Source of the DNA: Terriglobia bacterium | GTDB lineage: Bacteria > Acidobacteriota > Terriglobia > 20CM-2-55-15 | Assembly: GCA_965198225.1 (NCBI GenBank) | Contig: CBDAOY010000003.1 | Location: 32,001 to 96,000, forward strand | Length of the DNA: 64,000 nt | Reading direction: 5' to 3' | Part shown: one piece after another, positions 28,727 through 44,904 of the stretch | How positions within the stretch are numbered: position 1 is the first letter of the stretch | Layout of the letters: every line of letters starts with the position of its first letter | Program-made: the position numbers and the translations under genes | Notes under the pieces: model-generated | Databases searched by the model: none | What the model was told of the DNA's origin: nothing | Seen by the model: the letters and a program-made list of their open reading frames with translations, nothing else

Positions 28727-29622
28727 TGCTCCAAGGAAACGCCATCGCTAGAGCGCGGGGCTTCTCGCTCATCGAGTTGATGTTCGCGATGTCGATCACG
28801 ATGGGTCTCGGTCTGATCGTCTTCCAGATGTTCCTGCAGAACGAACGAGTGTTCCAGGACCAGAACCTGGTTCTGGAGATGCAACAGAGTACCCGCGCGG
28901 TCGCCTCGATGGTCGTCGACGAGGTGCGGAAGGCCGGCCAGGGAATCCCGGTTTACAGCGCCGGCCAGGACGCGGCCGTCGCGGAGGCCGCCCAGGCTTT
29001 CCTGGACGGGACGAACGCCGGGACGCTGCGCTTCCGGGCCGGAATCCGCAACGCCGTAACTACGACCGCCAACCCCCTGGCCTACACCCTGAACAACTCG
29101 GCGACGATCACGGTGGCCAGCGCGGCGTCGATCAACGCCATTGTCGGCGCCAATACAGGGCGGTTCGTCTACCTGTGGGGACCGACAGCGAACTCCTGGA
29201 CATGGGTGCGGGCGGAAATCACGGCCATCAACGCCGGAGCCAACCAGATCACCGCGACGACGCGACAGATGAGCGGTCAGGGCGGAACGTTCTCATCGAC
29301 TCCGACGGTATCCCTGGAGGAGGGCATTTCCTACCGCCTGTCCAACGGCGCGATCCTTCGTGGGACAACCACGACTTTCACGAACCTCACGAATCCGACG
29401 TTCACCGAAAGCACCGTCGGAAACAACTTCGCGACGCTGGCCTTCACCTACTACGACGCCAGTAACACGGCCGTCAATCCGACGAACTTGGCCTCGCGGT
29501 CGACGATTCGGCGGGTGGACCTCACGGTGGCCGGCGAAACTTCGGATACGTTATCGACCGGTTCCCGGCAATCCTACCCGGTGACGCTTTCGGTGTACCC
29601 CAGGAATGCCGGTTTGAATTGA
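28726..29622 (+). CDS. Type IV minor pilin, PilW-like (set 2)
   Basis: G|FSLIE, EVRKAG, LAFTYYD...IRRVDL...VYPRN. Confidence 0.82.
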   Translation: MLQGNAIARARGFSLIELMFAMSITMGLGLIVFQMFLQNERVFQDQNLVLEMQQSTRAVASMVVDEVRKAGQGIPVYSAGQDAAVAEAAQAFLDGTNAGTLRFRAGIRNAVTTTANPLAYTLNNSATITVASAASINAIVGANTGRFVYLWGPTANSWTWVRAEITAINAGANQITATTRQMSGQGGTFSSTPTVSLEEGISYRLSNGAILRGTTTTFTNLTNPTFTESTVGNNFATLAFTYYDASNTAVNPTNLASRSTIRRVDLTVAGETSDTLSTGSRQSYPVTLSVYPRNAGLN

Positions 29623-29654
29623 CGCTGCCAGAGAGCGAAACTTCAGCATGGGGT

Positions 29655-29947
29655 GTAGGGGCGCTCTATGAGGGCAGGTGGTCTGGGTTCGAAACGTGTA
29701 GGTGCGCTCTATGAGCGTACGTGGTTTCGGTTCGAACAATGTGCGGTCATAGACCATTGGTGTCCAAAGCGTCTGCAGGGAACTCCTCTGGTGCGGGATA
29801 AGCCCGTTCGAATCAGTAGGCGCAGGGTCAAGTCCCCAGAGAGGTTTCGGTGCCGGAGACAAGCGAAACTCTTGGCTCGGGTGTAGGGGCGCTCTATGAG
29901 CGCACGTGTTTCGGTTCGAAGAGTGTGCGGTCATAGACCGCACCTAC
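29655..29947. repeat. GTAG REP cluster (about 5 units) between convergent pilin genes
   Basis: GTAGG(G/T)GCGCTCTATGAGCG units and inverted GTGCGGTCATAGACCGCACCTAC with TTCGGTTCGAA spacers. Confidence 0.85.
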
Positions 29948-29981
29948 ACCTCGTGCGCACAAGGGCCGGCAGATCAAGCGT

Positions 29982-31247
29982 CTAGTACTCCCGCAGGGAT
30001 ATGGGCGAGTACGGGAAACTGCCGTTGGCGTTGGCAATCGTGGAAGTATCGTAGCGGATTCCATTGCCGCCGCCGCCGTTGAAATCGGCGATCACGTCGC
30101 CGCGTGAAGCGAGCACGGGCCCGAGCGGGTCCTGAGCCGTCTGGGTTCCGCGGCTCTTTGCGATGAGTATTCCCCCTCGGACCTCTCCATTTCCGCCACC
30201 GTTCCAGTGCAACTCTCCCTGACCGATGACCAGGATCAGACCGTTCCAGGCGAAGTTACCGCGCACCGTGAGGACTCCACGGACGAGCAGGATGCCGTAC
30301 CCGGTGCCGGGACCGAACTCGGCGTCGCCGTGCACGACCACGACACGGTAGTCATTGGCCGCCCCGATGCTTCCGATAGCCTGAGTGTTCCCAAATCCCG
30401 GTGTATACGAGTCGGTCGCCGCACCTGACAGGCTCGAAACCACCGTCTCGAGTCCCGCAGGGGTCGTCAGCAGCCCAGTCAGCTCCCCGCTGACGTCTGC
30501 GACGTCTGGAATGCCACCACCGTCACCGGTGTAGTTTGCCTGGCGGTTGTTGGGGATCGCGTTGGTTATCGTCGTGTCGTCCTGGCCCGAAATCGCGCCG
30601 ATAGCGTTCTCGTTGTTCCCGCTGCCGGCCTGATCGTTCCCGTCTATCCGGAAGAGGTTGGAGTTGGCCGCATCGAAGCATGGGGGGGGACCCGTACAAA
30701 CGCCACCATCGAGCGTCAACGCGGCAGGAATTGCGGGGAAGCTCCCACGTTTTGCATCGACCTCGATGATTCGAGTGGCGCTACCGATCCGAGCGATACT
30801 CACGAGCGTGATGACCTCGTTGGTATCTACCGTGGAGGCCGCTCCGTCCGCGACATCGTTGCGCAAGAACACGTGGTAGGTCCCGACCGTCCGACCGTCC
30901 GGGTCTACCAGAACCTGACCGGTGGCCCTCAGGTTGGCGTCTGACGGTAGAAGAGGGCGATCGTCGGTGGCCAGGAGCGTTGTCAGGTCGGCGGCCGTGG
31001 ACAGATTCGAGTCGACTCCGGCAGCCGTTACGAGGTCCGTATTGATGGCGTTCGCCGATCCCCGCAGAGCTTCTCGACCGGCGTCGATCCCGGCCTCGGC
31101 CAGAAACAGCAACTGAGTGTTGACCTTGTAGTTGTCGGCAATCTTGACGTCGACGGTCGTTGATGTCAGCAGGGCGGCGCCGACGATCGTTAGAAAGGAC
31201 AACAAGATCAGGGCCGTGATCAGGGCCATGCCTCGCTGTGGTTTCAC
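29982..31247 (-). CDS. PilX-like minor pilin (set 2), opposite strand
   Basis: QRG|MALIT (no Glu5), LFLAEAGID, Gly-rich beta C-terminus GYGILLVRGVL...GLILVIG. Confidence 0.82.
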   Translation of the reverse strand: MKPQRGMALITALILLSFLTIVGAALLTSTTVDVKIADNYKVNTQLLFLAEAGIDAGREALRGSANAINTDLVTAAGVDSNLSTAADLTTLLATDDRPLLPSDANLRATGQVLVDPDGRTVGTYHVFLRNDVADGAASTVDTNEVITLVSIARIGSATRIIEVDAKRGSFPAIPAALTLDGGVCTGPPPCFDAANSNLFRIDGNDQAGSGNNENAIGAISGQDDTTITNAIPNNRQANYTGDGGGIPDVADVSGELTGLLTTPAGLETVVSSLSGAATDSYTPGFGNTQAIGSIGAANDYRVVVVHGDAEFGPGTGYGILLVRGVLTVRGNFAWNGLILVIGQGELHWNGGGNGEVRGGILIAKSRGTQTAQDPLGPVLASRGDVIADFNGGGGNGIRYDTSTIANANGSFPYSPISLREY

Positions 31248-31499: not shown

Positions 31500-32150
31500 T
31501 CAGACGGCCTTGACGAGGCCTTCCCGGATTGCGTACCGGATCAGCTCTCCGATCGTCCGGAGTCCCAGCTTGTCCATGATGTGCTGTCGATGCGTGTGGA
31601 TCGTCTTTGGGCTGACGAACAGCGTCTTTGCGACCTCGCTGGATGACTTGCCCTCCGCGAGCAGGTAGAAGACTTCCTTCTCACGTGGAGTCAGCGCCTC
31701 CAGGCCCCGTCGCGATTGTTCCTCACCCGGCTGCAGGTTCGCGAGGACCTTCGTCACGTCGGTGGAGAAGACCGAGCCTCCCTGATGAATCGTGCGGACC
31801 GCGGTGACGAGCTCGTTGTCGAGCGAGTCCTTCAGCAGGTACCCGGCAGCTCCGGCGGTCACGGCACCCGCGATCACCTGTCGCTCGCTGTGCACGGTAA
31901 GCATCAGAACCTTCGAGCCGCCCTTGGTGGCGATCTCCCGGGTGCTTTCGATACCGTTCTGACCGGGCATCGAGATGTCCATGATCACAATATCGGGATG
32001 CAACTTCGCGGCGAGTTCGACGGCTTCGGTGCCCGACGAGGCTTCGCCGACTACTTCCATGTCCGGCTCCTCCTCCAGAATCCGTTTCAGTCCCTGCCTC
32101 AAGATGGCGTGATCGTCAGCGATTACCAGTTTTATTTTTTCGTTTGTCAT
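31500..32150 (-). CDS. NarL/LuxR-family response regulator (copy 1)
   Basis: ADDH, MDISMP, GYLLKD, LTPREKEV...SPKTIHTHRQHIMDKL. Confidence 0.93.
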   Translation of the reverse strand: MTNEKIKLVIADDHAILRQGLKRILEEEPDMEVVGEASSGTEAVELAAKLHPDIVIMDISMPGQNGIESTREIATKGGSKVLMLTVHSERQVIAGAVTAGAAGYLLKDSLDNELVTAVRTIHQGGSVFSTDVTKVLANLQPGEEQSRRGLEALTPREKEVFYLLAEGKSSSEVAKTLFVSPKTIHTHRQHIMDKLGLRTIGELIRYAIREGLVKAV

Positions 32151-33219
32151 CTTCTTCACTCGTTCCCCTGGGGATAATCATTTCGACCGTGGTCCCCTGA
32201 CCCGACGCCGTACCGACCCGGAAGGATCCGCCGACGTCATTCATCCGCTGCCGGATGGTCCAGAAGCCAGAGCTCATCAATTTCCCACTTGTATCAAAAT
32301 AGCGGCGGGGATCGAATCCCCTTCCGTTGTCCTCTACCGCGACCCGAACCTCCGAATCGGAGAAACTCACTGCGATGTCTACCGCAGACGCCCCGGAATG
32401 CCGGATTGCATTGCTGATCGCTTCCTGACAACACCGATATAGCGCCATCGTCGGCGACTCGTCAAGCGGGTACGGTTTGCCATGAGTCCTGCAGCGCACA
32501 GCCACGTCCGAGGAGCTCGATACCTGTCCGGCCAGTTCCTCCAACGCGGGGACAAAACCCAGCGTGTCGAGGATCCTCGGGTAGAGCGTGTGCGATAGAT
32601 CGCGTATCTTCGACAGCAGGCTACCGACTTCGGCGCGCGCCTCTGCCAGTTCTTCGACGGCCTTTGCCGCGCTCCCGTTGCGCTTCATCTCGCTCTCGAG
32701 CAGCTTGAGCTTCAGCTTCAACGCGGCAATCGTCTGACCGACGTCGTCGTGCAGCTCGTGAGTGATCCGGCGACGTTCTTCATCCCGTGCACGCAGCGTC
32801 TCCCGTACGAGAACTGTTTCCGACACGGTGTTCTTCTGGGCGCGACGGAGGGCCGCGTGCATCGTCCGAGCCGCCGCGATCTGGGGCGCAAGCAGTTCCA
32901 GAATCCAGCCGTGATCTTCCGACGCGGGGCTCGTCGAGACAAAGCCGAACTGTTGGTCTCCGTTGCCGAACGACACGGTCTGGGCGGCCGGTGAAGGAGC
33001 GGGCCATTCCCCGAGCTCGAATTCCCGGATCCGGCGTCCCGTGGCATACCATTCCTTCCACTCGGACGCGGATCGGTAGACCACTCGCAGCTCCTTGGCC
33101 GGCGTCAGCTTCCGGACAATCTTCATTGTTTCCGCCACGACCGACCGCATGTCCTTGGCCTGCGTGATGGTTCGTCCGAATCGGCTGATCAGGCTGACGT
33201 CTGATTTGGAGATGTCCAT
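32116..33219 (-). CDS. Soluble HisKA_3 (NarX/UhpB-type) histidine kinase (copy 1)
   Basis: EERRRITHELHDDVGQ, QEAISNAIRHS, EDNGRGF, GTTVE; no TM segment evident. Confidence 0.88.
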   Translation of the reverse strand: MDISKSDVSLISRFGRTITQAKDMRSVVAETMKIVRKLTPAKELRVVYRSASEWKEWYATGRRIREFELGEWPAPSPAAQTVSFGNGDQQFGFVSTSPASEDHGWILELLAPQIAAARTMHAALRRAQKNTVSETVLVRETLRARDEERRRITHELHDDVGQTIAALKLKLKLLESEMKRNGSAAKAVEELAEARAEVGSLLSKIRDLSHTLYPRILDTLGFVPALEELAGQVSSSSDVAVRCRTHGKPYPLDESPTMALYRCCQEAISNAIRHSGASAVDIAVSFSDSEVRVAVEDNGRGFDPRRYFDTSGKLMSSGFWTIRQRMNDVGGSFRVGTASGQGTTVEMIIPRGTSEEDDKRKNKTGNR

Positions 33220-33228
33220 TCCGTTCAA

Positions 33229-34854
33229 TTAGTGCTTCTTTCCTAAAGCGTTCAACAGATTGATGCGTCCTTTGCCCAGGAGTTTTTCAAACTCCGGGTT
33301 CAGTCCGTCGATCGAATCTGCGGTCACTATAATCGTGCGTGCGGCTGTGTTGGCCCTCCCACCCAGGGACACCAGCAGTGCGACCGACCCACTGACGAGC
33401 GGTGCACTGAAAGACGTCCCAGAAGCCCTCGCATAGAGACCTCCCGGAAACGTCGTGACAACCTCGTCCCCGGGTGCGGTTACCGAAATATTTTTTCCGA
33501 AGTTCGAGAAGTCGGCCAGCCGGTCCCCGAGATCGGTCGCCGCGACTGCGATGACGGTCGGGTAGGACGCCGGGTAGACATCGCTGGCATCTTCGGCGTT
33601 GTTTCCGGCGGACGCGACGAGAACAATGCCGTCGGACCAGGCCTTCTGCACCACCCGCCCGAAAGCTTCGGAATCCTGGCCGATCGAGAAACTCATGTTG
33701 ATGACGTCTACTTCCTGATCGATTGCCGCGTACACGGCAGTCATCGCTAGAAACAGCGTGGACTGACCCTGGGAGTCGAATGCGCGGATCGGCACCAGTT
33801 GCGCCTCGGGCGCGACCGCGTGAAGGAGCCCGGCGACCAGCGTGCCGTGTCCCAGGCGGTCGAACATGCCGTTACCGAACAGGGACATGGTCGACTGGTT
33901 TACGTGGAAGAACTGGAGCTGTTCCCAGAACAGGGACATGGTCGACTGGTCCAGGGTGAACTGCTGCATCTCCTCCCAGAACAGGGACATAGTCGACTGG
34001 TCCAGCGTGCCCGCCAGCAATTGCTCCCAGAACAGGGACATGGTCGATTGATCCAGGTTGAGCCGTTGGAGCTCTTCCCAGAACAGGGACATGGTCGACT
34101 GGTCCAGCGTACCCGCACGCAGCTGCTCCCAGAACAGGGACATGGTCGATTGGTCCAGGCCGAGCCTCAGCAATTGCTCCCAGAACAGAGACATCGTCGA
34201 CATGTCGATCGAGCTGTTCTTCAGAGCCCGTACGAGATCTTCAAAGAGAGACATCGTGGACTGATCGATGCCGCCGAACTCCGAGACCGTCCCCCCGCCC
34301 AGCAGGTTAACGCCGGGTTCCAGCCAGGTCCGAATCGCCGGATGGTCCAGATCGACGCCGGTGTCGATGAACGCGATGCGCGTCCCCGCACCCGTCGTAA
34401 TGTCACGTGTGTCGGAGGCGTGAATTACATCCAGCCCAATCTGCTCTGCGTAGTGTTCGGGTACTTCCGTTCCAAAGAAATAGGTGGGCGAACCCTCTCC
34501 GAACAGCGACATCACGCTCTGGAAGAGCGACATCGTGCTCTGGTCCAGATCGATTTCGCCGTCTGAGCCCGTTTTCTCCCGGTCCATCCGAATTATCTTG
34601 TTCTCTTCGGCGTCGATGACTGCCTTTTCCTTCTTCAGCTTTTTCTTGACGCTCTTCTTGTTCTCGACTTCGACCAGGTATATCGGTTCGTCGCCGATCT
34701 GTCCGAGAACCCTGCCCTTGTATCTTTTCAGGATCTTGTCTATCGACTTTCCGTCCTTGAGAGTCACGATCAACGTCCGGGTGCCCGCAGCTACAGCCAC
34801 GCCGGGCAGCAGCCAGCCGAGGAGGACCAGAACGAGGATGATGCGTCGATGCAT
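33229..34854 (-). CDS. Secreted S8 subtilisin-family protease with internal QSTMSLF repeats (copy 1)
   Basis: Sec signal peptide; triad FIDTG / GHGT / GTSFSAP, oxyanion SAGN; repeat array between Asp and His. Confidence 0.9.
   Translation of the reverse strand: MHRRIILVLVLLGWLLPGVAVAAGTRTLIVTLKDGKSIDKILKRYKGRVLGQIGDEPIYLVEVENKKSVKKKLKKEKAVIDAEENKIIRMDREKTGSDGEIDLDQSTMSLFQSVMSLFGEGSPTYFFGTEVPEHYAEQIGLDVIHASDTRDITTGAGTRIAFIDTGVDLDHPAIRTWLEPGVNLLGGGTVSEFGGIDQSTMSLFEDLVRALKNSSIDMSTMSLFWEQLLRLGLDQSTMSLFWEQLRAGTLDQSTMSLFWEELQRLNLDQSTMSLFWEQLLAGTLDQSTMSLFWEEMQQFTLDQSTMSLFWEQLQFFHVNQSTMSLFGNGMFDRLGHGTLVAGLLHAVAPEAQLVPIRAFDSQGQSTLFLAMTAVYAAIDQEVDVINMSFSIGQDSEAFGRVVQKAWSDGIVLVASAGNNAEDASDVYPASYPTVIAVAATDLGDRLADFSNFGKNISVTAPGDEVVTTFPGGLYARASGTSFSAPLVSGSVALLVSLGGRANTAARTIIVTADSIDGLNPEFEKLLGKGRINLLNALGKKH
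33877..34269 (-). repeat. Coding repeat array, 8 x (L/I/V)(D/N)(Q/M)STMSLF, mostly 51-bp period
   Basis: Recurring CCCAGAACAGGGACATGGTCGACTGGTCCAG on the + strand; all units in frame. Confidence 0.95.
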
Positions 34855-34869
34855 CGTTTCTAGGCCTCC

Positions 34870-35292
34870 TTATGCCTGTGCTTGCATGGAATAGGCGAGT
34901 CGCCAGTCGCGAGGATCGTTATGGGACAATCCTCGAACGACAAAACGGCGATCGTCGAGCGAGATCGTCAGATCGAAGTCCCCGTCGGGCACGGTGTGAA
35001 ACATGAACTCTCCGATGGGATTCGTCCGCGTCAACGTCTTCTGCCGGTCCGTTTCGATCACGACCGGGAGGTTGGAGACATTACCCAGGGAGGCGGTTTC
35101 CGGCATCACCTGACCTCCGACATGGAGGCACGGGCTGCCGTCCGACTGCTTGACGAGAAGGTCGAGGATGACCCCCCCGCCTTCATAGATCAGGTGCCGA
35201 TCCTCGGCAGAGGCATCCCGGATCAGGGGCACCTCTTCAAACCAGGAATCAAACAGGAGCGAGCCACGAATTTCGACAACGTCATGGTTCAT
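34870..35292 (-). CDS. Small beta-rich hypothetical protein (copy 1), resembling the C-terminal domain of CHAT-associated anti-sigma-like proteins
   Basis: RBS GAGGAGG; GSLLFDSW...RHLIYEGG..LDL...VGGQV...TNPIGEFMF; paralogue at 39280-39696. Confidence 0.75.
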   Translation of the reverse strand: MNHDVVEIRGSLLFDSWFEEVPLIRDASAEDRHLIYEGGGVILDLLVKQSDGSPCLHVGGQVMPETASLGNVSNLPVVIETDRQKTLTRTNPIGEFMFHTVPDGDFDLTISLDDRRFVVRGLSHNDPRDWRLAYSMQAQA

Positions 35293-35375
35293 AATCAGTT
35301 CCTCCTCGTCTTCGGACAAAAGTTCCGAACAAACCAACAAAAGTACGGATTCGCAACGTGGCCCGAGTGTTCTTG
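35283..35375 (-). pseudogene. Decayed 3' end of a second CHAT gene
   Basis: GTTCCTCC..TTCGGACAAAAGTTCCGAA...AAGTACGGAT...AACGTGGC aligns with 39702-39767 of the intact CHAT 3' end. Confidence 0.7.
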
Positions 35376-35704
35376 TTGGCGCCAGTGCAGCATGCTGGGG
35401 CCGGAGCCTTCGGGCCGTCGTTATAGATCGGTGTCCGTATTCTATGCTAAAGACCTAAGATGTTGGGATAGGAAACCTTCTCAGGCGAGGTGTAGTCAGG
35501 GGGGCTTGAAGAGTGTGATTTCCCCGGTGGCTGGCCCGAATCAAAGAGCCTCGCGGGCCCCTCGGCGGAGGATTGGGGAGAATGAGGTCGGATCGGAACC
35601 CGGCAGACACAGCGGATCAAGACGGATCGAGCGAACGGGTGCGACGCGCCACAACCCGCCGACCGACGCCGCGCGCGACCGACTCTTGGCGGGCGCGACC
35701 CGAC

Positions 35705-36355
35705 TCACACCGTGTTGACCAGTCCTTCGCGGATCGCGTACCGAATCAACTCGCCGATCGTCCGAATGCGAAGCTTGTCCATGATGTGCTGCCGATGCGT
35801 ATGGATCGTTTTGGCGCTCACGAACAGCGCATCGGCGACCTCGCTCGACGACTTGCCCTCGGCAAGGAGGTAAAACACTTCCTTTTCGCGTTTAGTGAGT
35901 GCTTCCAGGCCTCTGCGGCTTTCGTCCTCAACTGACCCGAGATTGGCGAGCGTTTTCGTCACTTTGGAGGAGAAGACGGACCCGCCCGAGTGAATCGTTC
36001 GGATCGCCGTGACGAGTTCGTTGTCGAGCGAATCTTTCAGCAGGTACCCGGCAGCGCCGGCGGTGACGGCGCTGGCGATGACCTGCCTTTCATCGTGGAC
36101 GGTCAGCATCAAGACTTTGGAGCCGCCTTCCGTGGCGATTTCCCGGGTGCTTTCGATCCCGTTCTGCCCGGGCATCGATATGTCCATGATGACGATATCC
36201 GGATGCAGTTCCCCGGCCAGTGCGACCGCCTCGGACCCGGTGGAAGCTTCGCCCACGACTTCCATGTCCTGTTCTTCTTCCAGTATTCGTCTCAGCCCCT
36301 GTCTCAGTATTGCGTGATCATCCGCGATCAACAGTCGTATCTTTCCGTTCGTCAT
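35705..36355 (-). CDS. NarL/LuxR-family response regulator (copy 2)
   Basis: 216 aa, same motifs as copy 1 and highly similar. Confidence 0.93.
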   Translation of the reverse strand: MTNGKIRLLIADDHAILRQGLRRILEEEQDMEVVGEASTGSEAVALAGELHPDIVIMDISMPGQNGIESTREIATEGGSKVLMLTVHDERQVIASAVTAGAAGYLLKDSLDNELVTAIRTIHSGGSVFSSKVTKTLANLGSVEDESRRGLEALTKREKEVFYLLAEGKSSSEVADALFVSAKTIHTHRQHIMDKLRIRTIGELIRYAIREGLVNTV

Positions 36356-37514
36356 CCTTTTCTCCCGTTGTTAAGGGCACAATCATTTCAACCGTGGTTC
36401 CCTGGCCCGACGCCGTGCCGAGCCGGAAAGATCCGCCGGTGTCGCTCATCCGCTGGCGGATCGTCCAGAATCCCGAGCTCATCAACTTCCCACTGGCATC
36501 GTAGAAACGACGAGGGTCGAACCCGCATCCATTGTCTTCGACCGATACTCTTACCTCCTGTTCCGCAAAATAGACGTGTATGGTCGCTCTGGAGGCGCCG
36601 GAATGCCTGATCGCGTTGCTGAGCGCCTCCTGACAACATCGGTACAATGCGAGGGTCGTGGGTTCATCCAGGGGTCTTGGGGTGCCGCGCACGCTGCAAC
36701 GGGCTCTGATGCCCGAAGGCCCCGACACCTGGTTCGCCAGTTCCTCCAGCGCGGGGACGAAACCCAGAGTGTCGAGGATCCTCGGATACAGCGTGTGAGA
36801 CAGGTTCCGAACCCTTGCCAGCAACTGGCCCACGTTCTCGCGGGCTTCGGCCAGCTCCTCGATCGTTGTGGCCGAAAAACCGTTCTGTGCGATCCGATTC
36901 TCCAACAGCTTGAGCTTCAGCTTGAGTGTCGCGATCATCTGCCCCACGTCATCGTGCAGGTCGTGGGTAATCCGTCGCCGCTCTGCGTCACGAGCGCGCA
37001 GAGTTTCACGAACCAGTTCCATCTCCGAGATTGCATGCTTCTGGGCTCGAAGCAGGGCCGCGCGGAGGGTCAGTACGGCGGAAATCTGCGGAGCCATCAA
37101 CTCCAGGACCCACGTCGTGTCCTCGGATGTCGGGCTGATCGAAACAAAACCGTATTGCTCGCTTCCGGTTTCGAATGCGACGGTCTGTGCGGCCGGCGAC
37201 GGGGACGGCCATTCCGCCTGATCGTAGGAACGGATGCTGCGTCCGAGGGCGTGCCACTCCTTCCAGGCTCCCGCCACCGCGTACACGACGCGCAGCTCGA
37301 CGGCGGGCGTCAGCTTCCGGACGATCTTCAGGGCCTCGGCGACGACCTTTCGGACGTCCTGGGTTTGCGTGATCGTCCGTCCGAACCGCCCGATCAGGCT
37401 GACGTCAGCGGGCGAAATCCCCGTCGTATCCGCAGCCTGTTTCGATTTCCTGCTCTCCCCGCCTGCAGCGAGCGGCTTAGTTATTTTTTTTCTTTTTGCC
37501 TTTGGCTTTGCCAT
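36318..37514 (-). CDS. Soluble HisKA_3 histidine kinase (copy 2); start uncertain
   Basis: AERRRITHDLHDDVGQ, QEALSNAIRHS, EDNGCGF; similarity to copy 1 starts at ISPADVSLIGRFG. Confidence 0.86.
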   Translation of the reverse strand: MAKPKAKRKKITKPLAAGGESRKSKQAADTTGISPADVSLIGRFGRTITQTQDVRKVVAEALKIVRKLTPAVELRVVYAVAGAWKEWHALGRSIRSYDQAEWPSPSPAAQTVAFETGSEQYGFVSISPTSEDTTWVLELMAPQISAVLTLRAALLRAQKHAISEMELVRETLRARDAERRRITHDLHDDVGQMIATLKLKLKLLENRIAQNGFSATTIEELAEARENVGQLLARVRNLSHTLYPRILDTLGFVPALEELANQVSGPSGIRARCSVRGTPRPLDEPTTLALYRCCQEALSNAIRHSGASRATIHVYFAEQEVRVSVEDNGCGFDPRRFYDASGKLMSSGFWTIRQRMSDTGGSFRLGTASGQGTTVEMIVPLTTGEKDDERKDTTVDRG

Positions 37515-39246
37515 TCCCGTTTCCGTTGGAATTCCCGGTACTGCCTGTGTTCGAGCCAGTTGTATCGCTGTCATCCAACGCCTCAGTCAGGTTGATGCGT
37601 CCCCAGCCCAGCTCGTTCCAGAGAGCCGGGTTCAACGATGACGATTCGATGGAGTCCGCCGTGTGTAGGATAGTGTGTCTGGCGGATATATTGTTCTTAC
37701 CCACGGACATGAGCAACGCCAGCCCGGCGCTCACCATCGGCGCACTGAACGATGTGCCGGACGCTCTGGCATACAGGCCTCCAGGGAACGTGGTTGCCAC
37801 GCCAACCCCCGGAGCCAGGACGTCGACGAAACCGTAGTTCGAGAACGACGCGAGGTGGTCTTCGAAATCCGTCGAGGCGACCGCGATCACCTTGTTGTGT
37901 TGCGCCGGATAAATGTCGTTGTTTATGTAGGCGGCGTCGTTTCCGATCGATGCGACCAGTGCGACTCCTTGCGACCATGCATCGTTCAGTGCCCGGTTCA
38001 TGGCTTTGGATTCGGTACCGATCGAAAAACTCATGTTGATGACGTCGACGTCCAGGGCGAGGGCGGCATAGACGGCGGCGACGGCGAAGAACAGCGTCGA
38101 CCGACCCTGGGAGTCGAATGCGCGGATCGGCACCAGTTGGGCTTCGGGCGCGACCGCGTGCAGGAGCCCGGCGACCAGCGTGCCGTGTCCCAGGCGGTCG
38201 AACATGCCGTTACCGAACAGGGACATCGTCGACTGGTTCACGTAGAAGAACTCGAGCTGTTCCCAGAACAGGGACATGGTCGACTGGTCCAGGGTGAACT
38301 GCTGCATCTCTTCCCAGAACAGGGACATGACCGACTGGTCCACGTCGAGCCTCTGCAGGACTTCCCAGAAAAGCGACATGGTCGACTGGTCCAGAGTACC
38401 TGCGAACAGTTGCTCCCAGAACAGGGACATGGTCGATTGATCCAGGTTGAGTCTCTGGAGCTCTTCCCAGAACAGGGACATGGTCGACTGGTCCAGGGCG
38501 CCAGCCGCGAGCCGCTCCCAGAACAGCGACATGACGGACTGATCCAGGCCAGCCCTCAGCAATTGATCCCAGAACAGCGACATCGTCGACATGTCGATCG
38601 AGCTGTTCTTCAGGGCCCGCACGAGATCTTCAAAGAGCGACATCGTAGACTGGTCGATGCTGCCGTACTCCGAGGCCGACCCCCCACCCAGCAGGTTGAC
38701 GCCGGGCTCCAGCCAGGTCCGAATCGCCGGATGGTCCAGATCGACGCCGGTGTCGATGAACGCGATGCGCGTCCCCGCACCCGTCGTAATGTCACGCGTG
38801 TCGGACGCGTGAATCACATCCAGCGCAATCTGCTCGGCGTAGTGTTCAGGCACTTCCGTCCCGAAGAAATCGGTAGGGGATCCTTCTCCGAATAACGACA
38901 TCACGCTCTGGAACAGCGACATCGTGCTCTGATCCAGATCGAGAAACCCACCGGGTATCGATGGAGGCTTGCTCTCCAGCGATACGAGGCCGTTCGGTTC
39001 CACATCGGTGACCCACTTGTCGCCGGCCAGGTCCTCGATCGGGTCTTCGTCCGTCCCGTCGGTAAGAACCAGGAAAACCGGCTCCTGGCCCATCTGTCCG
39101 AGAACCTGGAGATCGTATTTCGCCTTGACCTGGTTGATCTTGTTTGCGCTCTTGAGTGTTACGATCAGCTCCAGCCCGCCGGCTGAGGCTGCGGTCGGGA
39201 GCAGGAGCCCCGCGATCAGTAAGGTGAGAATTATGCATCTTCGCAT
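37477..39246 (-). CDS. Secreted S8 subtilisin-family protease with QSTMSLF repeats and G/N/K-rich tail (copy 2)
   Basis: Signal peptide; FIDTG / GHGT / GTSFSAP, SIGN; tail GNSNGNGNGKAKGKKKKNN. Confidence 0.9.
   Translation of the reverse strand: MRRCIILTLLIAGLLLPTAASAGGLELIVTLKSANKINQVKAKYDLQVLGQMGQEPVFLVLTDGTDEDPIEDLAGDKWVTDVEPNGLVSLESKPPSIPGGFLDLDQSTMSLFQSVMSLFGEGSPTDFFGTEVPEHYAEQIALDVIHASDTRDITTGAGTRIAFIDTGVDLDHPAIRTWLEPGVNLLGGGSASEYGSIDQSTMSLFEDLVRALKNSSIDMSTMSLFWDQLLRAGLDQSVMSLFWERLAAGALDQSTMSLFWEELQRLNLDQSTMSLFWEQLFAGTLDQSTMSLFWEVLQRLDVDQSVMSLFWEEMQQFTLDQSTMSLFWEQLEFFYVNQSTMSLFGNGMFDRLGHGTLVAGLLHAVAPEAQLVPIRAFDSQGRSTLFFAVAAVYAALALDVDVINMSFSIGTESKAMNRALNDAWSQGVALVASIGNDAAYINNDIYPAQHNKVIAVASTDFEDHLASFSNYGFVDVLAPGVGVATTFPGGLYARASGTSFSAPMVSAGLALLMSVGKNNISARHTILHTADSIESSSLNPALWNELGWGRINLTEALDDSDTTGSNTGSTGNSNGNGNGKAKGKKKKNN
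38215..38658 (-). repeat. Coding repeat array, 9 x (D/N)(Q/M)S(T/V)MSLF, mostly 51-bp period
   Basis: Same unit as 33877-34269 with one extra copy. Confidence 0.95.
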
Positions 39247-39279
39247 TTCTTGAGTTCTCCATCCATGGAAAGAAATCGG

Positions 39280-39696
39280 TTAACAGTCAGTCGAACACGC
39301 TAATTGCCAGTTTCGGGGATCGCTCCGCGAGAGCCCTCGCACCACAAACCGCCGACCCTCCAGCAGGATCGTGAGATCGAAGTCCACGTTCGAGACCGAA
39401 TGAAACATGAATTCTCCGATCGGATTCGTCCGCGTCGCCGTCTTCTTCCTTCGAGTCTCGATCACGACCGGGAGGTTTGCGACGTCCCCCATGGAATCCG
39501 TGTCGGGCAGCACCTGGCCCCCGACGTGAAGGCAGGGGTCTCCGTTCGTGCGTTTGACCAGAAGATCGAGGATGACTCCGCCGCCCTCGTAGATCAGATG
39601 CCGGTCCTCGGGGGACGGGTTCCGGACCCGGGGCGTTTCTTCGAACCAGGAATCGAACAAAAGTGAGCCCCGAATTTCGACAACATCATGTTGCAT
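39280..39696 (-). CDS. Small beta-rich hypothetical protein (copy 2), translationally coupled to CHAT
   Basis: MQHDVVEIRGSLLFDSW; start overlaps the CHAT stop. Confidence 0.75.
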   Translation of the reverse strand: MQHDVVEIRGSLLFDSWFEETPRVRNPSPEDRHLIYEGGGVILDLLVKRTNGDPCLHVGGQVLPDTDSMGDVANLPVVIETRRKKTATRTNPIGEFMFHSVSNVDFDLTILLEGRRFVVRGLSRSDPRNWQLACSTDC

Positions 39697-41708
39697 AACG
39701 AGTTCCTCCGTGTTTTCGGACGAAAGTTCCGAATCCGCCCCAGAAGTACGGATGCGGAAACGTGGCGCGGATCGTCGCCGCGGCGCCATGAGTGGCCGCA
39801 GGCGCGTTCGTGCCGTCGTAAAGTTGATAGAACTGTCTGGAAAAAGATTGCGCCGCCTCATCCCGAATTGCCCAGAACGCCGAGACGATCGTGTGCGCAC
39901 CGGACAGGTAGAAAGCTCTCATCAGCCCCTGCCACTCGTCGCCGGCCGAGATCACCCGGCGTGCGGTATGACAGCCGGTGACGACCAGGGTGCCCGCCCG
40001 GAACTGCATGTCCATCAGTTCCCGGCTCGTCAGGCGACCCTCACTGGTTTCCAGCCAGGAAAGCGCCCCCTGGACCGTGTCGATGCCCGCATGTCCTGCG
40101 ACGTGGACCAACTCCCGATATTGCTTCAAGTGGTGGCCGAGCTCATCAGGAGACGGATTGATGAGCACGACCGCGTCATCGAAGTGTGCCGCGGACTGTT
40201 CCACTTCCGTGACGATGTCTTCCTTTTTGTCCGTGGAAAAAGCGACGAACAGCGGCGGTTCCGCTGGTTCCTCCTCCCGGACCGGGGATGCATACAGCGT
40301 CGCGCTCGGACTGTAGCCGATGGAATGATCCTCGCATAAGAACGATGCGCCATCGTGGAGGGCGTGGAATGGAACGCCGTGCAGGAATCCATGAGGCACG
40401 ACGGTGACGTGCTTGCCCACTTTGTCACGAACGGGCTCGACCAGAGCCTGGTAGAGCTGCTGCAGATGTTCCCTCGCCGTCCGCTCCAGGTGATGAATGA
40501 CCTTACCCAGCCGCTCGAACTTGACACTGCAGCTTGCGATGTGCCGCTCGAGATGGCTCGATTCGGACCGGATCGAGGGGCCCACGCCGGGTCGATGGAC
40601 GCACTCGGTGGTTCCTCGATTGACGATGAAGATGTACAGATCCTTTCCGGAGATGAAGTACTCGAGGATGGTTTCGTCGAGGTCCAGACGTTGGGCCAAC
40701 CCCTCGGATAAGACGCCCTCATCGGCGGGAGCCAGCCGCTCCACCAGGACCCGGGAGCGAGCCCGCTCCGAAAGCCGGAATGCATCCGGAACCGAAGTGG
40801 ACGCGGCGGTCGGCATCATTTGCGTGTAAACGTTCTCTCGATCGGTCATGAAGGCCATCTTGAGGTCGTCCGAGCCGATCCGATGCCAGAGGGAATCCAG
40901 CATGGATTCGGCTTTCCCCAGGAATGGAACACTCCGCGTCTCATCGATCTCGGCAAGCGACGCCCCTAATTCGTAGTAGGCGTGGAATTGCATCCATTCC
41001 GATCGACTCTCCTCTGCAAGCTTCGCGGCGGATTCGAAAGAGTCGATGGCGCACGCTCGATCCCCGGTTTTTCGTTGGATTCGCCCGATGACGATGTCGG
41101 CCATAGCTAACCGGTCGGGCAGGGAACGCTCTTCCAGCAGCGCCCGGGCCGCCGTCGCCTCTCGCAACGCCTGAGCCTCCCCCCGCTCGCCCCTGAACAG
41201 GGCCGCTTGCACCTTTGAAACGGCCGTCCAGACGCTGTTGCCTTCAGACTCGAAGCGTTTGACGGCTTCTCCCAGCAGCCGATCGACTTCTTCGTTCTGG
41301 CCCATCCGAAGCGATGCGACCGCTTCGAAGAGCAACGTCTTGCCGACTTCGTAGTTCAGCCCGATCTTCATACCCAGGGCTCGGGCTCGGCGTGCCGATC
41401 GGATCGCTTCCGAAAGATCGCCGATCTCGAGCAGCATCTCGGCCTCATCGAGCCAGCACAGGCTAACGTGACGGTCGTCGGCCTCGCGCTCGAACTCCTG
41501 CTTCAAGTCTGACATGCCGCGCAGAGCTTGACCGCTGTCTCCTCTCAGGTAATCCAGGTAGGTGCGGTTGTACCGGCTCTGCAGCTCGATCGCGTGCATG
41601 CCGAGTTCGGCAGCGAGCTCGAGGGCCCTTTCATAGCGCCCGTCGGCCTGATCGAATCGATGCAGAGCGGTGAGGACGACTCCTGAGTTCAGGGAGGACG
41701 CGAGGAGG
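39686..41708 (-). CDS. TPR + CHAT (caspase/HetF-like cysteine protease), 5'-truncated
   Basis: TPR-like helices, SERARSR, VPHGFLHGVPFHAL, His motif HVAGHAG, Cys motif VTGCHT, SAFWAIRD, HPYFWGGF; TPR-like reading continues upstream of ATG 41599 to about 41708, then breaks. Confidence 0.82.
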
Positions 41709-41765
41709 CCCGGCCGCCACCCACAGGACGCCAGAACCAGAAGAGGGTTGTTCCGTACGACTCAT
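41709..41765 (-). pseudogene. Displaced, inverted N-terminus of the EamA gene (MSRTEQPSSGSGVLWVAAG)
   Basis: ATG 41765 just downstream of CATAAT; re-inverting about 41709-41911 joins VLWVAAG in frame to ATLWGTD. Confidence 0.7.
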
Positions 41766-41844
41766 TGGTAGGGATTATGGCGCATTGGAACTGGGAGGGC
41801 GGGAAAGAAGTAGGCAATGGGCCGTGGTCGGAAGGCAGGCGCGT

Positions 41845-41910
41845 GTAGGTGCGGTCTATGACCGCACATTGTTCGAACCGAAACAACGTGCGCTCACAGA
41901 GCGCATCTAC
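41845..41910. repeat. GTAG REP doublet
   Basis: GTAGGTGCGGTCTATGACCGCAC ... GTGCGCTCACAGAGCGCATCTAC. Confidence 0.85.
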
Positions 41911-41911
41911 A

Positions 41912-42784
41912 GCTACTCTCTGGGGGACCGACACCGTGTTCCGCGCCCCGCTGACCGAGGTCATCGGACCCACCCACATCGTTCTCTATGAGCACCTGAT
42001 CCTGTCGCTCGTCGTCCTGCCGATCGTGATTCGGCATCGAGGCGTGTTGCGACACCTCGGCAGATCCGAATGGCTGGCGGTGCTCGGTATTTCCTGGATC
42101 GGGTCGGCGGCGGCAACCGTTCTGTTCACCTACGCGATCCAGGCGGGCAACCCGACGACCGCGGTGCTGCTCCAGAAGCTGCAGCCTTTGTTCGCGATGA
42201 CGCTGGCATGGAGTTTTCTCGGCGAGCGCTGGTCTCGAAAGTTTCCATACGTTGCGCTCGGAGCCCTGCTTGGCGGCTACTTGATCTCTTTCGGGGGAGC
42301 GAACCTTCTGGATCCGCTTTCCGCGGTCGAGCTTCGGCCGGCGCTCCTGGCGACGACTGCGGCGATGGGTTGGGGCAGCGCGACCGTTCTGGGTCGCTGG
42401 ATGGTGCCCAAGGTTCCGTTCACCTTACTCACAGGACTGCGGGTTGTCTGTGCCGTGCCGCTTCTCACGCTGTTCTCGCTGATGGAGACTCCGGTCGTGC
42501 CGCGGGGCGAACACGTCCTGCCACTCCTTTTCATGGCGCTCGTACCCGGATTCGCCGGTCTGATGCTGTACTATCGGGGCCTCCGTAGGACGCCGGCGTT
42601 CCGGGCGACGTTGGCCGAGCTGGCCTTTCCCGCGACCGCCGCGCTTCTGAACTGGACGTTTCTCGGTGCGGAGACGAACGCCGTTCAGCTCTTTGGATTC
42701 ATGCTGGTGTGGTTGTCGATCGTTCTGCTGCGAACCGGAGCACGGATTGCACGGACAAATCCAGCCACGGATTACACGGATTAA
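41912..42784 (+). CDS. EamA/DMT-family membrane transporter (body; start displaced)
   Basis: Multiple hydrophobic helices; LWGTD, LLQKLQPLFA, LYYRGLRRTPA...ELAFP. Confidence 0.8.
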   Translation, partial: ATLWGTDTVFRAPLTEVIGPTHIVLYEHLILSLVVLPIVIRHRGVLRHLGRSEWLAVLGISWIGSAAATVLFTYAIQAGNPTTAVLLQKLQPLFAMTLAWSFLGERWSRKFPYVALGALLGGYLISFGGANLLDPLSAVELRPALLATTAAMGWGSATVLGRWMVPKVPFTLLTGLRVVCAVPLLTLFSLMETPVVPRGEHVLPLLFMALVPGFAGLMLYYRGLRRTPAFRATLAELAFPATAALLNWTFLGAETNAVQLFGFMLVWLSIVLLRTGARIARTNPATDYTD

Positions 42785-42937
42785 GCGGATTGGTTGAGGT
42801 CTTTCGGATAGCAGAGCCCAGGTTTTTGCCATCCGTGTAATCTGTGCAATCCGTGGCCTTCCGATGCTGGACTCGACACCTCAGTTCGCGCTTGCGAAAT
42901 CTGCGAGAATCCGTGCAATCCGTGTAACATCCGCGTA
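42764..42937. repeat. Inverted arrays of 9-10 bp repeats (CACGGATTA / AATCCGTG)
   Basis: GCCACGGATTACACGGATTAAGCGGATT; ATCCGTGTAATCTGTGCAATCCGTGGC; AATCTGCGAGAATCCGTGCAATCCGTGT. Confidence 0.75.
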
Positions 42938-44840: not shown

Positions 44841-44904
44841 TCTGATCTATTTTTTGCCAACCGCATCGGGGCAGGGGTGTCTATGACACCGACAAGGACA
44901 GTGA

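Follow-up and report, generated by a model that had tools for sequence, protein, structure and literature searches.

A candidate two-component version of an acidobacterial CHAT protease and subtilase cassette

In the type III-E CRISPR accessory module, which comprises Csx29 (TPR-CHAT), Csx30, Csx31 and CASP-sigma, the target of the protease is a dedicated partner protein, which in turn controls a transcription factor. In the RRNPP systems (Rap-Phr, NprR-NprX and PlcR-PapR), the ligand of the TPR receptor is a short imported peptide matured by secreted subtilisin-type proteases, and paralogous systems within a genome differ in their peptides. Precursors with several peptide copies that are processed by S8 proteases, such as yeast alpha-factor with Kex2 and cyanobactin PatE with PatA/PatG, contain tandem identical peptides with flanking sites suited to the S8 enzyme. 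ECF sigma factors under the control of a TPR-CHAT module are known for DdvA (PMC11506125) and Csx29 (PMC10028731). For DdvA-DdvS of Myxococcus xanthus, a passage of the DdvA paper places a zinc-finger anti-sigma part and a TPR-CHAT part in one sigma-release pathway and proposes self-cleavage (PMC11506125). A section of a review names carboxypeptidase, subtilase and CHAT domain proteins as conserved beside ECF54 sigma factors (PMC8999054). This ECF54-type context (acidobacterial or actinobacterial ECF sigma, anti-sigma, TPR-CHAT and S8) is catalogued but uncharacterised; "ECF54-type" names the gene context here and carries no claim that sigma factors of Acidobacteriota are themselves members of group ECF54.

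Herein, we analysed a window of 64,000 nucleotides from a Terriglobia bacterium, an acidobacterium of soil, containing a conserved five-gene unit that looks like an undescribed signalling circuit. The preliminary description knew of no described system with this combination; pieces of it are on record in the ECF54 context, DdvA and Csx29. Three components make up the conserved core: a TPR-CHAT protease in the cytoplasm, its beta-sandwich partner, and an S8 subtilase that is secreted. We put at roughly 0.55 the probability that the cassette is a two-component version of a protease-gated transcription switch in Acidobacteriota.

Locus layout and recurrence in related genomes

The gene order in the window is CHAT, a 138-aa protein, S8, a soluble kinase and a NarL regulator, and the last four genes are present twice (copies A and B). 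The ten features of the preliminary description, which had reported a co-oriented run with a tandem duplication, all lay on the minus strand at the positions it gave. They are listed here together with the two peptide-repeat regions.

39686..41599, minus strand: CHAT caspase-like protease, 637 aa, 5'-truncated (PF12770, E = 1e-34)
39280..39696, minus strand: small partner A, 138 aa, beta-sandwich, homologous to the ZAS anti-sigma C-terminal domain
37477..39246, minus strand: S8A secreted subtilase, 589 aa (PF00082), with a hydrophobic N-terminal segment and 11 motif copies
38212..38931, minus strand: S8A peptide-repeat region, 11 copies of Q-S-[TV]-M-S-L-F
36318..37574, minus strand: HKA soluble histidine kinase, start uncertain (HisKA_3 and HATPase_c)
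35705..36355, minus strand: RRA NarL/FixJ-type response regulator (Response_reg and GerE)
35291..35401, minus strand: remnant of a second CHAT, last 37 codons (tblastn: 54% identity, E = 6e-7)
34870..35292, minus strand: small partner B, 140 aa, 74% identical to copy A
33229..34854, minus strand: S8B secreted subtilase, 541 aa (PF00082 and the Fervidolysin N-terminal prodomain family)
33874..34542, minus strand: S8B peptide-repeat region, 10 motif copies
32116..33228, minus strand: HKB soluble histidine kinase, 370 aa (HisKA_3 and HATPase_c)
31500..32159, minus strand: RRB NarL/FixJ-type response regulator (Response_reg and GerE)

The duplication is old, the two copies being 74–88% identical in DNA; the S8 repeat region was their most similar part, and RRB and RRA were 85% identical. 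The tight junctions claimed earlier were confirmed: the CHAT and small-protein genes overlap by 11 nt, S8B and HKB abut with a gap of zero, and the kinase and regulator genes overlap by 38–44 nt, while the small protein is separated from S8 by 33 nt in copy A and 15 nt in copy B. The catalytic motifs were also present as described, namely His503 and Cys543 of CHAT (invariant in 22 aligned CHAT proteins), the S8 triad (His336 and Ser481 invariant and Asp164 at least 90% conserved in 59 sequences), and the HELHD H-box and receiver Asp, which can be read off directly. Homology of HKA to HKB begins at 37418 (tblastn), and HKA had no transmembrane segment (maximum Kyte-Doolittle 1.39). The N-terminal domain of HKB (145 aa) is cassette-specific, its matches in the whole genome being the two cassette kinases only, and GAF was only a weak lead for it. 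Two points were absent from the preliminary description, the 5' truncation of CHAT and the identity of the small protein as a domain of an anti-sigma factor.

The preliminary description had asked whether the CHAT-small-S8-HK-RR synteny recurs. This order was found in 11 of the 39 other, related genomes searched, with genes overlapping or a few bases apart. All 11 belong to the window's family (11 of its 23 searched genomes), where relatives are titled Solibacteraceae or Terriglobia, and the order persisted at identities as low as 47% for CHAT and 42% for the kinase. In one further genome, CHAT-small-S8 was present but the kinase pair was not. When species-representative genomes were scanned with the small-protein alignment, 11 loci emerged, all of them titled Acidobacteria, Terriglobia, Solibacteraceae or Candidatus Sulfopaludibacter.

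A second form was evident in many loci, where an ECF sigma factor, CHAT, an anti-sigma factor and S8 occurred together; CHAT lay inside the fetched stretch in 31 of 38 S8-anchored loci, two of them overlapping. The partner of most cassettes has a zinc-finger anti-sigma domain at its N-terminus and is encoded next to an ECF sigma factor. In the window's family there is neither sigma factor nor zinc-finger domain, and a HisKA_3 kinase and a NarL-type regulator follow S8; no ECF sigma gene was found in the window itself.

The CHAT protease and its small partner

Neither small partner, A or B, matched any Pfam or NCBIfam family, and a 140-aa sequence identical to B is present in the protein collection (P0077). 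The small protein aligned with the C-terminal 115–125 residues of seven anti-sigma factors of about 205 aa each, with Leu12, Asp15, Arg25, Arg32, Gly60, Gln61, Glu95 and Phe96 invariant, and the N-terminal part of the anti-sigma profile matched RsiW (E = 2.6e-4) and the DdvA zinc-finger chain (E = 0.015). A profile search of solved structures turned up no CHAT complex with a sequence relative of the small protein, and the Csx30 chain was absent from its matches. The family comprised 118 clusters of 87–151 aa, all but four of them 132–151 aa, and forms without ZAS made up 6 among the best 150 of 7602 profile hits. The alignments identify the small protein as the beta-sandwich domain that forms the C-terminal part of zinc-finger anti-sigma factors, and the cassette would thus be a two-component rewiring of the widespread acidobacterial ECF/anti-sigma/TPR-CHAT/S8 cassette.

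The link between CHAT and the small protein was upheld by complex prediction with controls. Three runs gave ipSAE values of 0.74, 0.76 and 0.76, whereas the best of three control pairs gave 0.00; 58 of 80 solved complexes attained the mark of the CHAT-small model, as did 2 of 110 mismatched pairs. At least 95% of contacts agreed between runs, with a pLDDT of at least 73 for the small partner. The modelled interface joins CHAT residues 502–506 and 541–544, which hold the His/Cys dyad, to a loop of small-protein residues 21–28 that contains the invariant Arg25. The model, built from author-supplied alignments and unable to distinguish substrate from inhibitor, supports binding of the small protein by CHAT with the dyad and the Arg25 loop at the interface. 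Because both lie there, the small protein may be a CHAT substrate or a securin-like pseudo-substrate. In the proposed mechanism, CHAT would cut or release the small protein and thereby alter kinase-to-regulator signalling, which would set transcription, probably of the cassette operon. The small protein is tied to the kinase and regulator only by gene order and by extra small-protein and regulator gene pairs in three same-genus genomes.

The preliminary description had proposed a TPR-CHAT sensor. Its CHAT part stood, with PF12770 at 120.8 bits against a cut-off of 24 and the dyad in place, but its TPR part is mostly lost. The window CHAT aligned only to residues 161–844 of an 844-aa orthologue, whose first 160 residues have no counterpart; homology begins at position 41743, and from there to 41599 it continues in frame through a stretch without a start codon. 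CHAT proteins of relatives are 826–880 aa long against 637 aa here. This first CHAT thus lacks about 160–207 N-terminal residues, among them the strongest TPR repeats, and the missing N-terminus had no close match elsewhere in the same genome. TPR families matched residues 133–203 of a full-length relative, and no Pfam TPR family was detected in the window CHAT. Given this truncation, the proposed sensor may not work in the window's genome, and the input arm may be impaired in this Terriglobia genome, with both S8-HK-RR sets intact.

On this evidence it is possible, though at less than even odds, that the window's cassette is a decaying remnant, in which the truncated CHAT either lacks activity or is never produced, and the two S8-HK-RR sets act as ordinary two-component-regulated proteases or are drifting to loss. 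Besides the truncation, the second CHAT is reduced to 37 codons where relatives have a full gene, same-genus genomes keep two CHAT genes of 826–854 aa each, a palindromic repeat of high copy number is located some 100 bp from where CHAT is truncated, and no sigma-70-like promoter was found in the cassette region. However, all nine remaining reading frames are open with catalytic residues intact, and the truncated CHAT retains the entire predicted interface with the small protein (residues 345–583). Moreover, three independent DNA runs, from three studies, have contigs that cover this stretch; the pieces listed for them, the CHAT-remnant junction included, showed zero differences from the window.

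The CHAT domain also raises the thought of a module for phage defence or cell suicide, comparable to craspase or to gasdermin proteases, with CHAT and S8 as death or defence proteases and the kinase pair regulating expression only. According to a passage of the DdvA paper, TPR-CHAT proteins operate in type III-E CRISPR and also in defence islands under DdvA control (PMC11506125), and the window CHAT matched the Csx29 model, although at 49.6 bits, far under the cut-off of 300. None of CHAT, the small protein and the kinase matched PADLOC models, S8 matched a generic subtilase model only, and no cas, gasdermin or effector gene was found among the neighbours scanned. That a genome has several paralogous cassettes, each accompanied by a sigma factor, suggests signalling more than defence, and a defence module is highly improbable.

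Peptide repeats in the subtilases

The claim that the S8 proteins carry peptide repeats proved correct for both copies. Of the 11 motif copies in S8A, two mark the prodomain/catalytic junction and the other nine fall between the catalytic Asp and His; of the 10 in S8B, two are at the junction and eight belong to the Asp-His insert, the repeat unit being W-E-x-L-x4-L-D-Q-S-T-M-S-L-F (17 aa). Serine codons are AGC in junction copies and TCN in insert copies, indicating that neither set was recently copied from the other. Among cassette proteins, a hydrophobic segment at the N-terminus is confined to the S8s (Kyte-Doolittle 2.20 at residues 4–22 of S8A and 2.67 at residues 5–23 of S8B, where it is signal-like), and no signal peptide was found in CHAT N-termini. 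The AlphaFold2 model of S8B (mean pLDDT 75) was confident for the prodomain and catalytic domain, with the insert below 50, and the repeat regions were of low confidence and flexible in two AlphaFold2 models.

Each S8 carries one repeated peptide, the same at the junction and in the insert of one protein and varying between lineages. The motif differed in every pair of CHAT-bearing cassettes compared within one genome and was constant within one cassette. Three pairs of S8s serving one cassette had a common motif at 64–74% catalytic identity, and two S8s without an adjacent CHAT carried the motif of a full cassette of the same genome at 51% and 82% identity. Such common motifs could reflect shared descent or gene conversion, and orthology within the window's genus was a mosaic.

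The S8 heptapeptide may be a cassette-specific recognition peptide. Our leading reading, put forward tentatively, is that the exported S8 cuts itself at the motif sites and that the released peptides are imported and sensed by the CHAT TPR. In two of the six ECF-type loci with the upstream gene scanned, a gene for a family-5 peptide-binding protein (SBP_bac_5) runs into the sigma gene, which fits an imported-peptide signal. No peptide importer was found beside the two-component loci checked, and the seven SBP_bac_5 genes of the window genome are all on other contigs.

The motif could also serve S8 alone. S8 would then be only an output or effector, turned on by the regulator of a cytoplasmic CHAT-small-kinase-regulator switch with an internal cue, and the motif would be a site through which the enzyme matures or inhibits itself, acting as a pseudo-substrate both where the prodomain ends and in a loop by the catalytic His; slippage would have multiplied it, and it would carry no signal. 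Subtilisins prefer hydrophobic residues at P1 and P4. The motif is hydrophobic at both, one copy sits at the prodomain/catalytic junction, the place of a short modelled strand (S8B residues 114–118), and the simplest S8 forms have a single copy there and a single one in the insert. The separate compartments of S8 and CHAT, like the two-component loci without an adjacent importer, also agree with this alternative. However, a protease's own site has no evident reason to differ per cassette, yet to match in S8s 51–74% identical. Copies number 2–12 in two-component cassettes and at least 16 in one ECF-type locus, nearly all at the junction, and units of 8 or 17 residues suit multiplied release products better than one inhibitory loop. 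With peptide-binding-protein genes coupled to some ECF-type cassettes as well, an effector-only S8 seems rather doubtful.

Comparison with described systems

The window's cassette is close to the ECF54-type cassette, with which it shares a homologous TPR-CHAT, the beta-sandwich partner domain, an S8 with short-peptide repeats and tight gene packing. It differs in having a soluble kinase and a NarL regulator instead of the ECF sigma and the zinc-finger domain, and in its repeat unit of 17 residues with a spacer, whereas the ECF54-type cassette has back-to-back octapeptides. As in the Csx29 module, a TPR-CHAT protease appears to be paired with a dedicated partner protein; unlike that module, the window has no Cas7-11 or RNA trigger, its output is two-component, and an S8 protease belongs to the unit. 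The match to the DdvA zinc-finger chain is a likeness to DdvA, but DdvA is a single transmembrane protein with a periplasmic TPR-CHAT, whereas CHAT here is separate and cytoplasmic, and the window cassette lacks the zinc-finger domain and sigma factor of DdvA-DdvS.

The likeness to RRNPP systems concerns a possible mode of working. Here the receptor would be a protease rather than a phosphatase or DNA-binding protein, and the peptide lies inside the protease itself rather than in a small precursor gene. Compared with alpha-factor and PatE, no modification enzymes are found in the window's cassette, and PatA/PatG was a weak NCBIfam match of the S8 catalytic domain, far under the cut-off; precursor and protease are one polypeptide, with most copies between the catalytic Asp and His.

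Gene order, domains, and erosion of the cassette

The preliminary description had proposed a run of genes for a CHAT protease, a small protein, an S8 subtilase, a histidine kinase (HK), and a response regulator (RR), followed by a CHAT remnant and a second small/S8/HK/RR set. This run proved to be real, with domains and catalytic residues in place. It occupies positions 31500-41743 of the window as a single co-oriented series on the minus strand, in which neighboring genes overlap or are separated by 0-33 nt.

Genes of the cassette (position in the window, strand, description; A, upstream copy; B, downstream copy)
39686-41599, minus strand: CHAT, with a Pfam/NCBIfam CHAT match
39280-39696, minus strand: small protein A, 138 aa, without Pfam or NCBIfam match
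37477-39246, minus strand: S8A, with a Peptidase_S8 match
36318-37574, minus strand: kinase HKA, with HisKA_3 and HATPase_c
35705-36355, minus strand: regulator RRA, with Response_reg and GerE
35291-35401, minus strand: tail of a second CHAT, 37 codons, 54% identical, E = 6e-7
34870-35292, minus strand: small protein B, 140 aa, without Pfam or NCBIfam match
33229-34854, minus strand: S8B, with a Peptidase_S8 match
32116-33228, minus strand: kinase HKB, with HisKA_3 and HATPase_c
31500-32159, minus strand: regulator RRB, with Response_reg and GerE

The CHAT scored 120.8 bits against PF12770 (cut-off 24) over residues 377-623, and its dyad, His503 and Cys543, was invariant in 22 aligned sequences. 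The two S8s scored 123 and 129.8 bits against PF00082; in the alignment, His336 and Ser481 of the triad were invariant, and Asp164 was at least 90% conserved. The kinase H-box HELHD and the receiver Asp of the regulator were both read from the translations. In a 19-residue Kyte-Doolittle scan, only S8A and S8B had an N-terminal hydrophobic segment, and no segment above 1.4 was found in the CHAT, small protein, kinase, or regulator; therefore, four parts are predicted to be cytoplasmic and one, the S8, to be exported. Within this genome, the 145-aa N-terminal domain of the kinase occurred in the two cassette kinases only. A search of solved structures with the kinase matched its core and gave no match for this domain, and a word-limited search with the domain returned 10 relatives, all kinases of 359-398 aa. 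Comparison with the Atlas gave GAF-family clusters at 0.87-0.88, scores under the counting level, so GAF is a lead only.

Copies A and B shared 74-88% DNA identity, with a peak over the S8 repeat region. A gene-conversion argument for the two copies was dropped when orthology with same-genus copies came out mosaic. Contigs from three DNA runs (three studies) span the cassette, and no differences were found in the pieces listed, among them the ones that cross the CHAT remnant; contig joints whose shorter side spans 20-26 letters, or which fall at the repeat element, were set aside. Three short contigs of one metatranscriptome library (0-1 differences, depth 3-4) matched HKB, small B plus the CHAT remnant, and the CHAT, which does not show expression because DNA carry-over is possible. 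A scan for promoters and terminators found no promoter and 6 terminator-like sites, neither count exceeding its shuffle mean. PADLOC gave no defense assignment, and identity as a defense system is unlikely. Directly downstream of the cassette lie pilin-like genes (28726-31247; PilX_N in a 421-aa minus-strand frame and an N-terminal methylation motif in a 298-aa plus-strand frame). Upstream, a 661-aa open frame (42881-44866, minus strand) had no Pfam or PADLOC match.

The first gene had been described as a TPR-CHAT protease with an intact His/Cys motif. The CHAT assignment and the dyad stood, but the gene is cut at its 5' end. CHAT orthologues are 826-880 aa long versus 637 aa for the window CHAT, whose frame aligns with an 844-aa orthologue from residue 161 only, at window position 41743. 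The frame has no start codon between 41743 and 41599, and therefore its product would be at most 637 aa, beginning at orthologue residue 161 by homology and at about 208 by the first start codon. In the full-length orthologue, residues 133-203 match TPR_12 and other Pfam TPR families; no Pfam TPR family matched the window CHAT at E <= 0.01. The lost N-terminus had no close match elsewhere in the genome (97% complete). In same-genus genomes, both CHAT genes are present, at 826-854 aa; the window genome has therefore lost one of the pair and the front part of its partner. The window's cassette copy is thus partly eroded.

A DDE transposase gene (DDE_Tnp_1_4, E = 2e-156; L045:11540-12958) separates the two cassettes of one same-genus genome, at the site where the window lost the second CHAT. 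A palindromic repeat of about 70 bp (41843-41912) lies between the truncated CHAT and an EamA transporter gene. It had 88 genome matches (from 428 first-look candidates), of which about 40, all on one strand, were near full length at 89-94% identity; contig depth at the repeat was 269-1998 versus approximately 5-30 alongside, and public-run contigs break there. Another contig of the same genome carries a 971-aa TPR-CHAT frame (G000:C5:34510-37227), 25-28% identical to the cassette CHAT.

Recurrence and ECF-type relatives

Whether the CHAT-small-S8-HK-RR synteny recurs had been posed as a neighborhood check, and the answer was positive. S8B as a query gave a match in 22 of 40 related genomes, and the 18 fetched loci revealed the order CHAT > small > S8 > HK > RR in 11 genomes besides the window's own, all in its family (11 of the 23 other members). 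Across the syntenic cassettes, the CHAT and the small protein each went as low as 47% identity, the kinase as low as 42%, and the regulator as low as 61%. In one additional genome, CHAT > small > S8 was followed by a catalase gene on the opposite strand. When species-representative genomes were scanned with the small-protein alignment, 11 loci were obtained, with titles of Terriglobia, Solibacteraceae, Candidatus Sulfopaludibacter, or Acidobacteria. The small-protein family comprised 118 clusters in the protein collection (87-151 aa, all but four 132-151 aa), and every source name given in them was 'hypothetical protein'. The cassette is a genuine and conserved unit, previously undescribed.

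Three same-genus genomes have an extra small+RR pair downstream of their cassettes (L044:3967-5023, L045:3358-4390, and L047:10745-11779), which is absent from the window. Its small paralogue, 54-57% identical to copy B, overlaps a complete NarL-type regulator gene, and no CHAT, S8, or kinase accompanies it; this pairing is a hint that small protein and regulator act together.

Weak relatives of the small protein were detected in 11 of 401 genomes sampled phylum-wide, the window's own included, as frames of approximately 200-260 aa adjoining CHAT genes of 921-982 aa. Each has an H-x3-C-x2-C region near its N-terminus, and its C-terminal domain aligns with the entire small protein; sub-threshold Pfam matches were to zf-HC2 and CarboxypepD_reg, and an ECF sigma gene adjoins them. 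Judged from their sequences, these relatives are soluble anti-sigma factors. The small protein matched the cassette anti-sigma factors in tblastn at E = 1e-8 to 2e-12, with eight invariant columns (Leu12, Asp15, Arg25, Arg32, Gly60, Gln61, Glu95, and Phe96); it has no N-terminal H-x3-C-x2-C zinc-finger domain and begins after it. Among solved structures, the N-terminal end of the profile matched the anti-sigma factors RsiW (E = 2.6e-4) and DdvA (E = 0.015), and the C-terminal end matched a transthyretin-like beta-sandwich. Two cassette ECF sigma queries found no ECF sigma gene in the 64-kb window at E <= 1e-4. Given this homology and the missing sigma gene, the cassette thus corresponds to the ECF-type form (ECF sigma, ZAS anti-sigma factor, TPR-CHAT, and S8) minus the sigma factor and the zinc-finger domain, plus a kinase-regulator pair.

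A CHAT lay within the fetched stretch at 31 of the 38 S8-anchored loci (two loci overlap); the other seven comprised two with an anti-sigma gene, one of which also had an ECF sigma gene, and five with the S8 alone. Several ECF-type cassettes occur within single genomes of the window's family. The family of ECF-type and two-component cassettes is large: the partner-protein profile matched 7602 cluster representatives at E <= 0.001, although some matched through the beta-sandwich domain alone, which makes the figure an upper bound. ZAS-less forms made up 6 of the best 150 of these 7602 matches. Sequence comparison of the two forms shows the CHAT, partner domain, and S8 as a likely portable core with an exchangeable output, the sigma factor being replaced by a kinase-regulator pair, and this exchange narrows the location of the partner's function.

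Some neighboring arrangements differed. A full-length ZAS anti-sigma paralogue in the window's genome (G000:C9:349334-349699; L023:9826-11155) stands beside an ECF sigma gene, with no adjoining CHAT or S8. At a locus elsewhere in the same class (L021:4709-11976), a sigma-54-dependent response regulator (receiver, Sigma54_activat, and HTH_8) lies between the CHAT and the anti-sigma gene. Fused ABC exporter genes (ABC_membrane + ABC_tran) lie divergently beside the ECF sigma gene of two ECF-type cassettes (L076:1435-3351 and L085:1652-3496).

Peptide repeats of the S8 subtilases

The subtilase with its peptide repeats is unusual. The motif Q-S-T-M-S-L-F or a one-residue variant occurs in 10 copies in S8B and 11 in S8A. 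Two copies per protein lie at the prodomain end; the others, most of them in 17-residue units W-E-x-L-x4-L-D-Q-S-T-M-S-L-F, fall within a stretch of approximately 150 residues inserted between catalytic Asp and His. The serine codons are AGC in the junction copies and TCN in the insert copies; neither set can therefore have been copied recently from the other. Approximately 50 database relatives repeat a motif at the same two sites, with 2-12 copies in the relatives' two-component cassettes. The motif is uniform within one S8 and depends on the lineage (QSVMSLF, WSVMSLF, QSTMALF, QSLIWLF, QSTVALL, QSTMSIL, and QSMAALL). Among ECF-type cassettes, those in the window's family and in a neighboring family of its class have an insert of back-to-back octapeptides such as ESAGGFLD, QSEAGFLD, QSSASFLD, QASAGFLD, QSSSEFLD, QSTSSFLD, QSSGSFLD, DSSASYLD, QSTESFLD, QSEAAFLD, and QSTVAFLD. 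Six motif strings had no occurrence in the literature searched.

In the S8 of L021:4709-11976, D-Q-S-T-G-A-I-L occurs 16 times or more, almost always at the prodomain junction and not in the Asp-His insert. Double-domain S8s of 857-861 aa (L075:6723-9308 and L083:6991-9564) carry the octapeptide run in domain one, with a different S8 domain behind it.

AlphaFold2 models of S8B and of a relative with one copy at each site were confident for the prodomain and catalytic domain; the repeat regions had pLDDT below 50, or 57-66 at the junction. This fits flexible linear motifs, and the confidence of the repeats in these models was too low to place the motif in the active site. The motif has hydrophobic residues at P1 and P4, where subtilisins prefer them.

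Between CHAT-bearing cassettes of one genome, the motif differed in every pair compared, sometimes by one residue, and such cassette-specific motifs point towards release and sensing of the peptides. Shared descent could explain the motifs held in common, which counts against a peptide signal. In three cases, the window included, S8s of the same cassette have a common motif at only 64-74% identity of their catalytic parts, and two S8s without an adjoining CHAT carry the motif of a full cassette elsewhere in their own genome at 82% and 51% identity (the latter being L083 versus L084 in the catalytic part). S8 pairs with different motifs reach 64% identity, overlapping the same-motif range, and age alone therefore does not account for a shared motif. 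In the two same-genus genomes with two CHAT genes, the S8s differ from each other (T versus V); in the window, where one CHAT is left, both S8s have the same motif.

A possible circuit and its relation to known systems

The window CHAT and small protein A were modeled as a complex, each with a 22-row alignment. The ipSAE was 0.74, 0.76, and 0.76 in three runs versus 0.00 for the best of 3 controls, with a contact agreement of at least 95% and a partner pLDDT of at least 73. Of 80 solved complexes, 58 score this high, as do 2 of 110 mismatched pairs; these counts are only rough here because the alignments were user-supplied. On the CHAT side, the predicted interface covers residues 345-377, 461, 502-506, 541-544, and 574-583, including the dyad His503/Cys543; on the small-protein side, it covers residues 13-16, 21-28, 31-35, 42-46, 59-69, and 91-97. 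Residues 21-28 form the loop T-P-R-V-R-N-P-S, which contains the invariant Arg25. Because a sequence search brought up no solved CHAT complex containing a relative of the small protein, the model is unlikely to reproduce a known structure. The model supports a pairing of protease with substrate or pseudo-substrate, in which the CHAT would engage the Arg25 loop.

These parts may form a self-contained circuit of a kind not described before, to which we give a probability of roughly one in three. The secreted S8 would carry many copies of its own signal peptide and excise them from itself; the peptides would be imported and recognized by the TPR arm of the cytoplasmic CHAT protease. The CHAT would then cut its dedicated beta-sandwich partner, and the cut would switch a transcription factor, the ECF sigma in most cassettes and the kinase-regulator pair in that of the window. 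The peptide would serve as an address label that keeps the paralogous cassettes of one cell apart. In parallel to sigma release by anti-sigma cleavage in the ECF form, we infer that CHAT action on the small protein alters kinase-to-regulator signaling. Self-excision by the exported S8 and sensing of imported peptides by the TPR arm are a tentative part of this circuit. At 2 of 6 ECF-type loci with the upstream gene scanned, SBP_bac_5 peptide-binding-protein genes run into the ECF sigma gene, which points towards imported peptides. Conversely, no peptide importer gene adjoins the two-component cassettes at the loci checked, the window's included, which counts against uptake.

To our knowledge, only Csx29 and DdvA are understood among TPR-CHAT proteases tied to sigma-factor control, and we know of no activating cue for the many free-standing bacterial CHAT proteases. 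Acidobacteriota are an abundant soil phylum whose signaling is poorly known. If the S8 repeats are signals, they would represent a new form of peptide communication in this phylum and the first precursor built into its own maturation protease. The parts are simple to test, with one protease, one substrate loop, and one peptide per cassette.

We take RRNPP quorum sensing, and alpha-factor with Kex2, to be likenesses to the possible working of the circuit. RRNPP systems have a TPR receptor fused to a DNA-binding or phosphatase domain, encode the pro-peptide in a small gene of its own, and import their peptide, whereas the candidate receptor here is a protease with no adjoining importer. Tandem identical peptides, as in multi-copy peptide precursors processed by S8 proteases, are present in the window S8s too. 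The closest characterized TPR-CHAT systems are DdvA-DdvS (PMC11506125) and type III-E CRISPR Csx29-Csx30-sigma (PMC10028731). The combination had been put forward as undescribed, and this holds for the two-component form and the S8 repeats, for which no paper was found in the literature searched. For the gene combination, only an ECF54 remark was found: the CHAT and subtilase parts are not new, since ECF54, the closest catalogued context, is reported to have carboxypeptidase, subtilase, and CHAT neighbors (PMC8999054); the ECF text seen of PMC7826278 makes no mention of CHAT. The window CHAT scored 49.6 bits against the Csx29 family (NF041237; cut-off 300). The window unit has no sigma factor and no zinc-finger domain: the ECF sigma/CHAT/S8 cassette of the ECF54-type context includes an ECF sigma, and ZAS anti-sigma factors share the C-terminal beta-sandwich domain of the small protein but add an N-terminal zinc finger. 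On these sequence features, the unit falls outside Csx29-Csx30-sigma, DdvA-DdvS, and the ECF54 context, and the cassette is a previously undescribed variant of TPR-CHAT-gated transcription switches.
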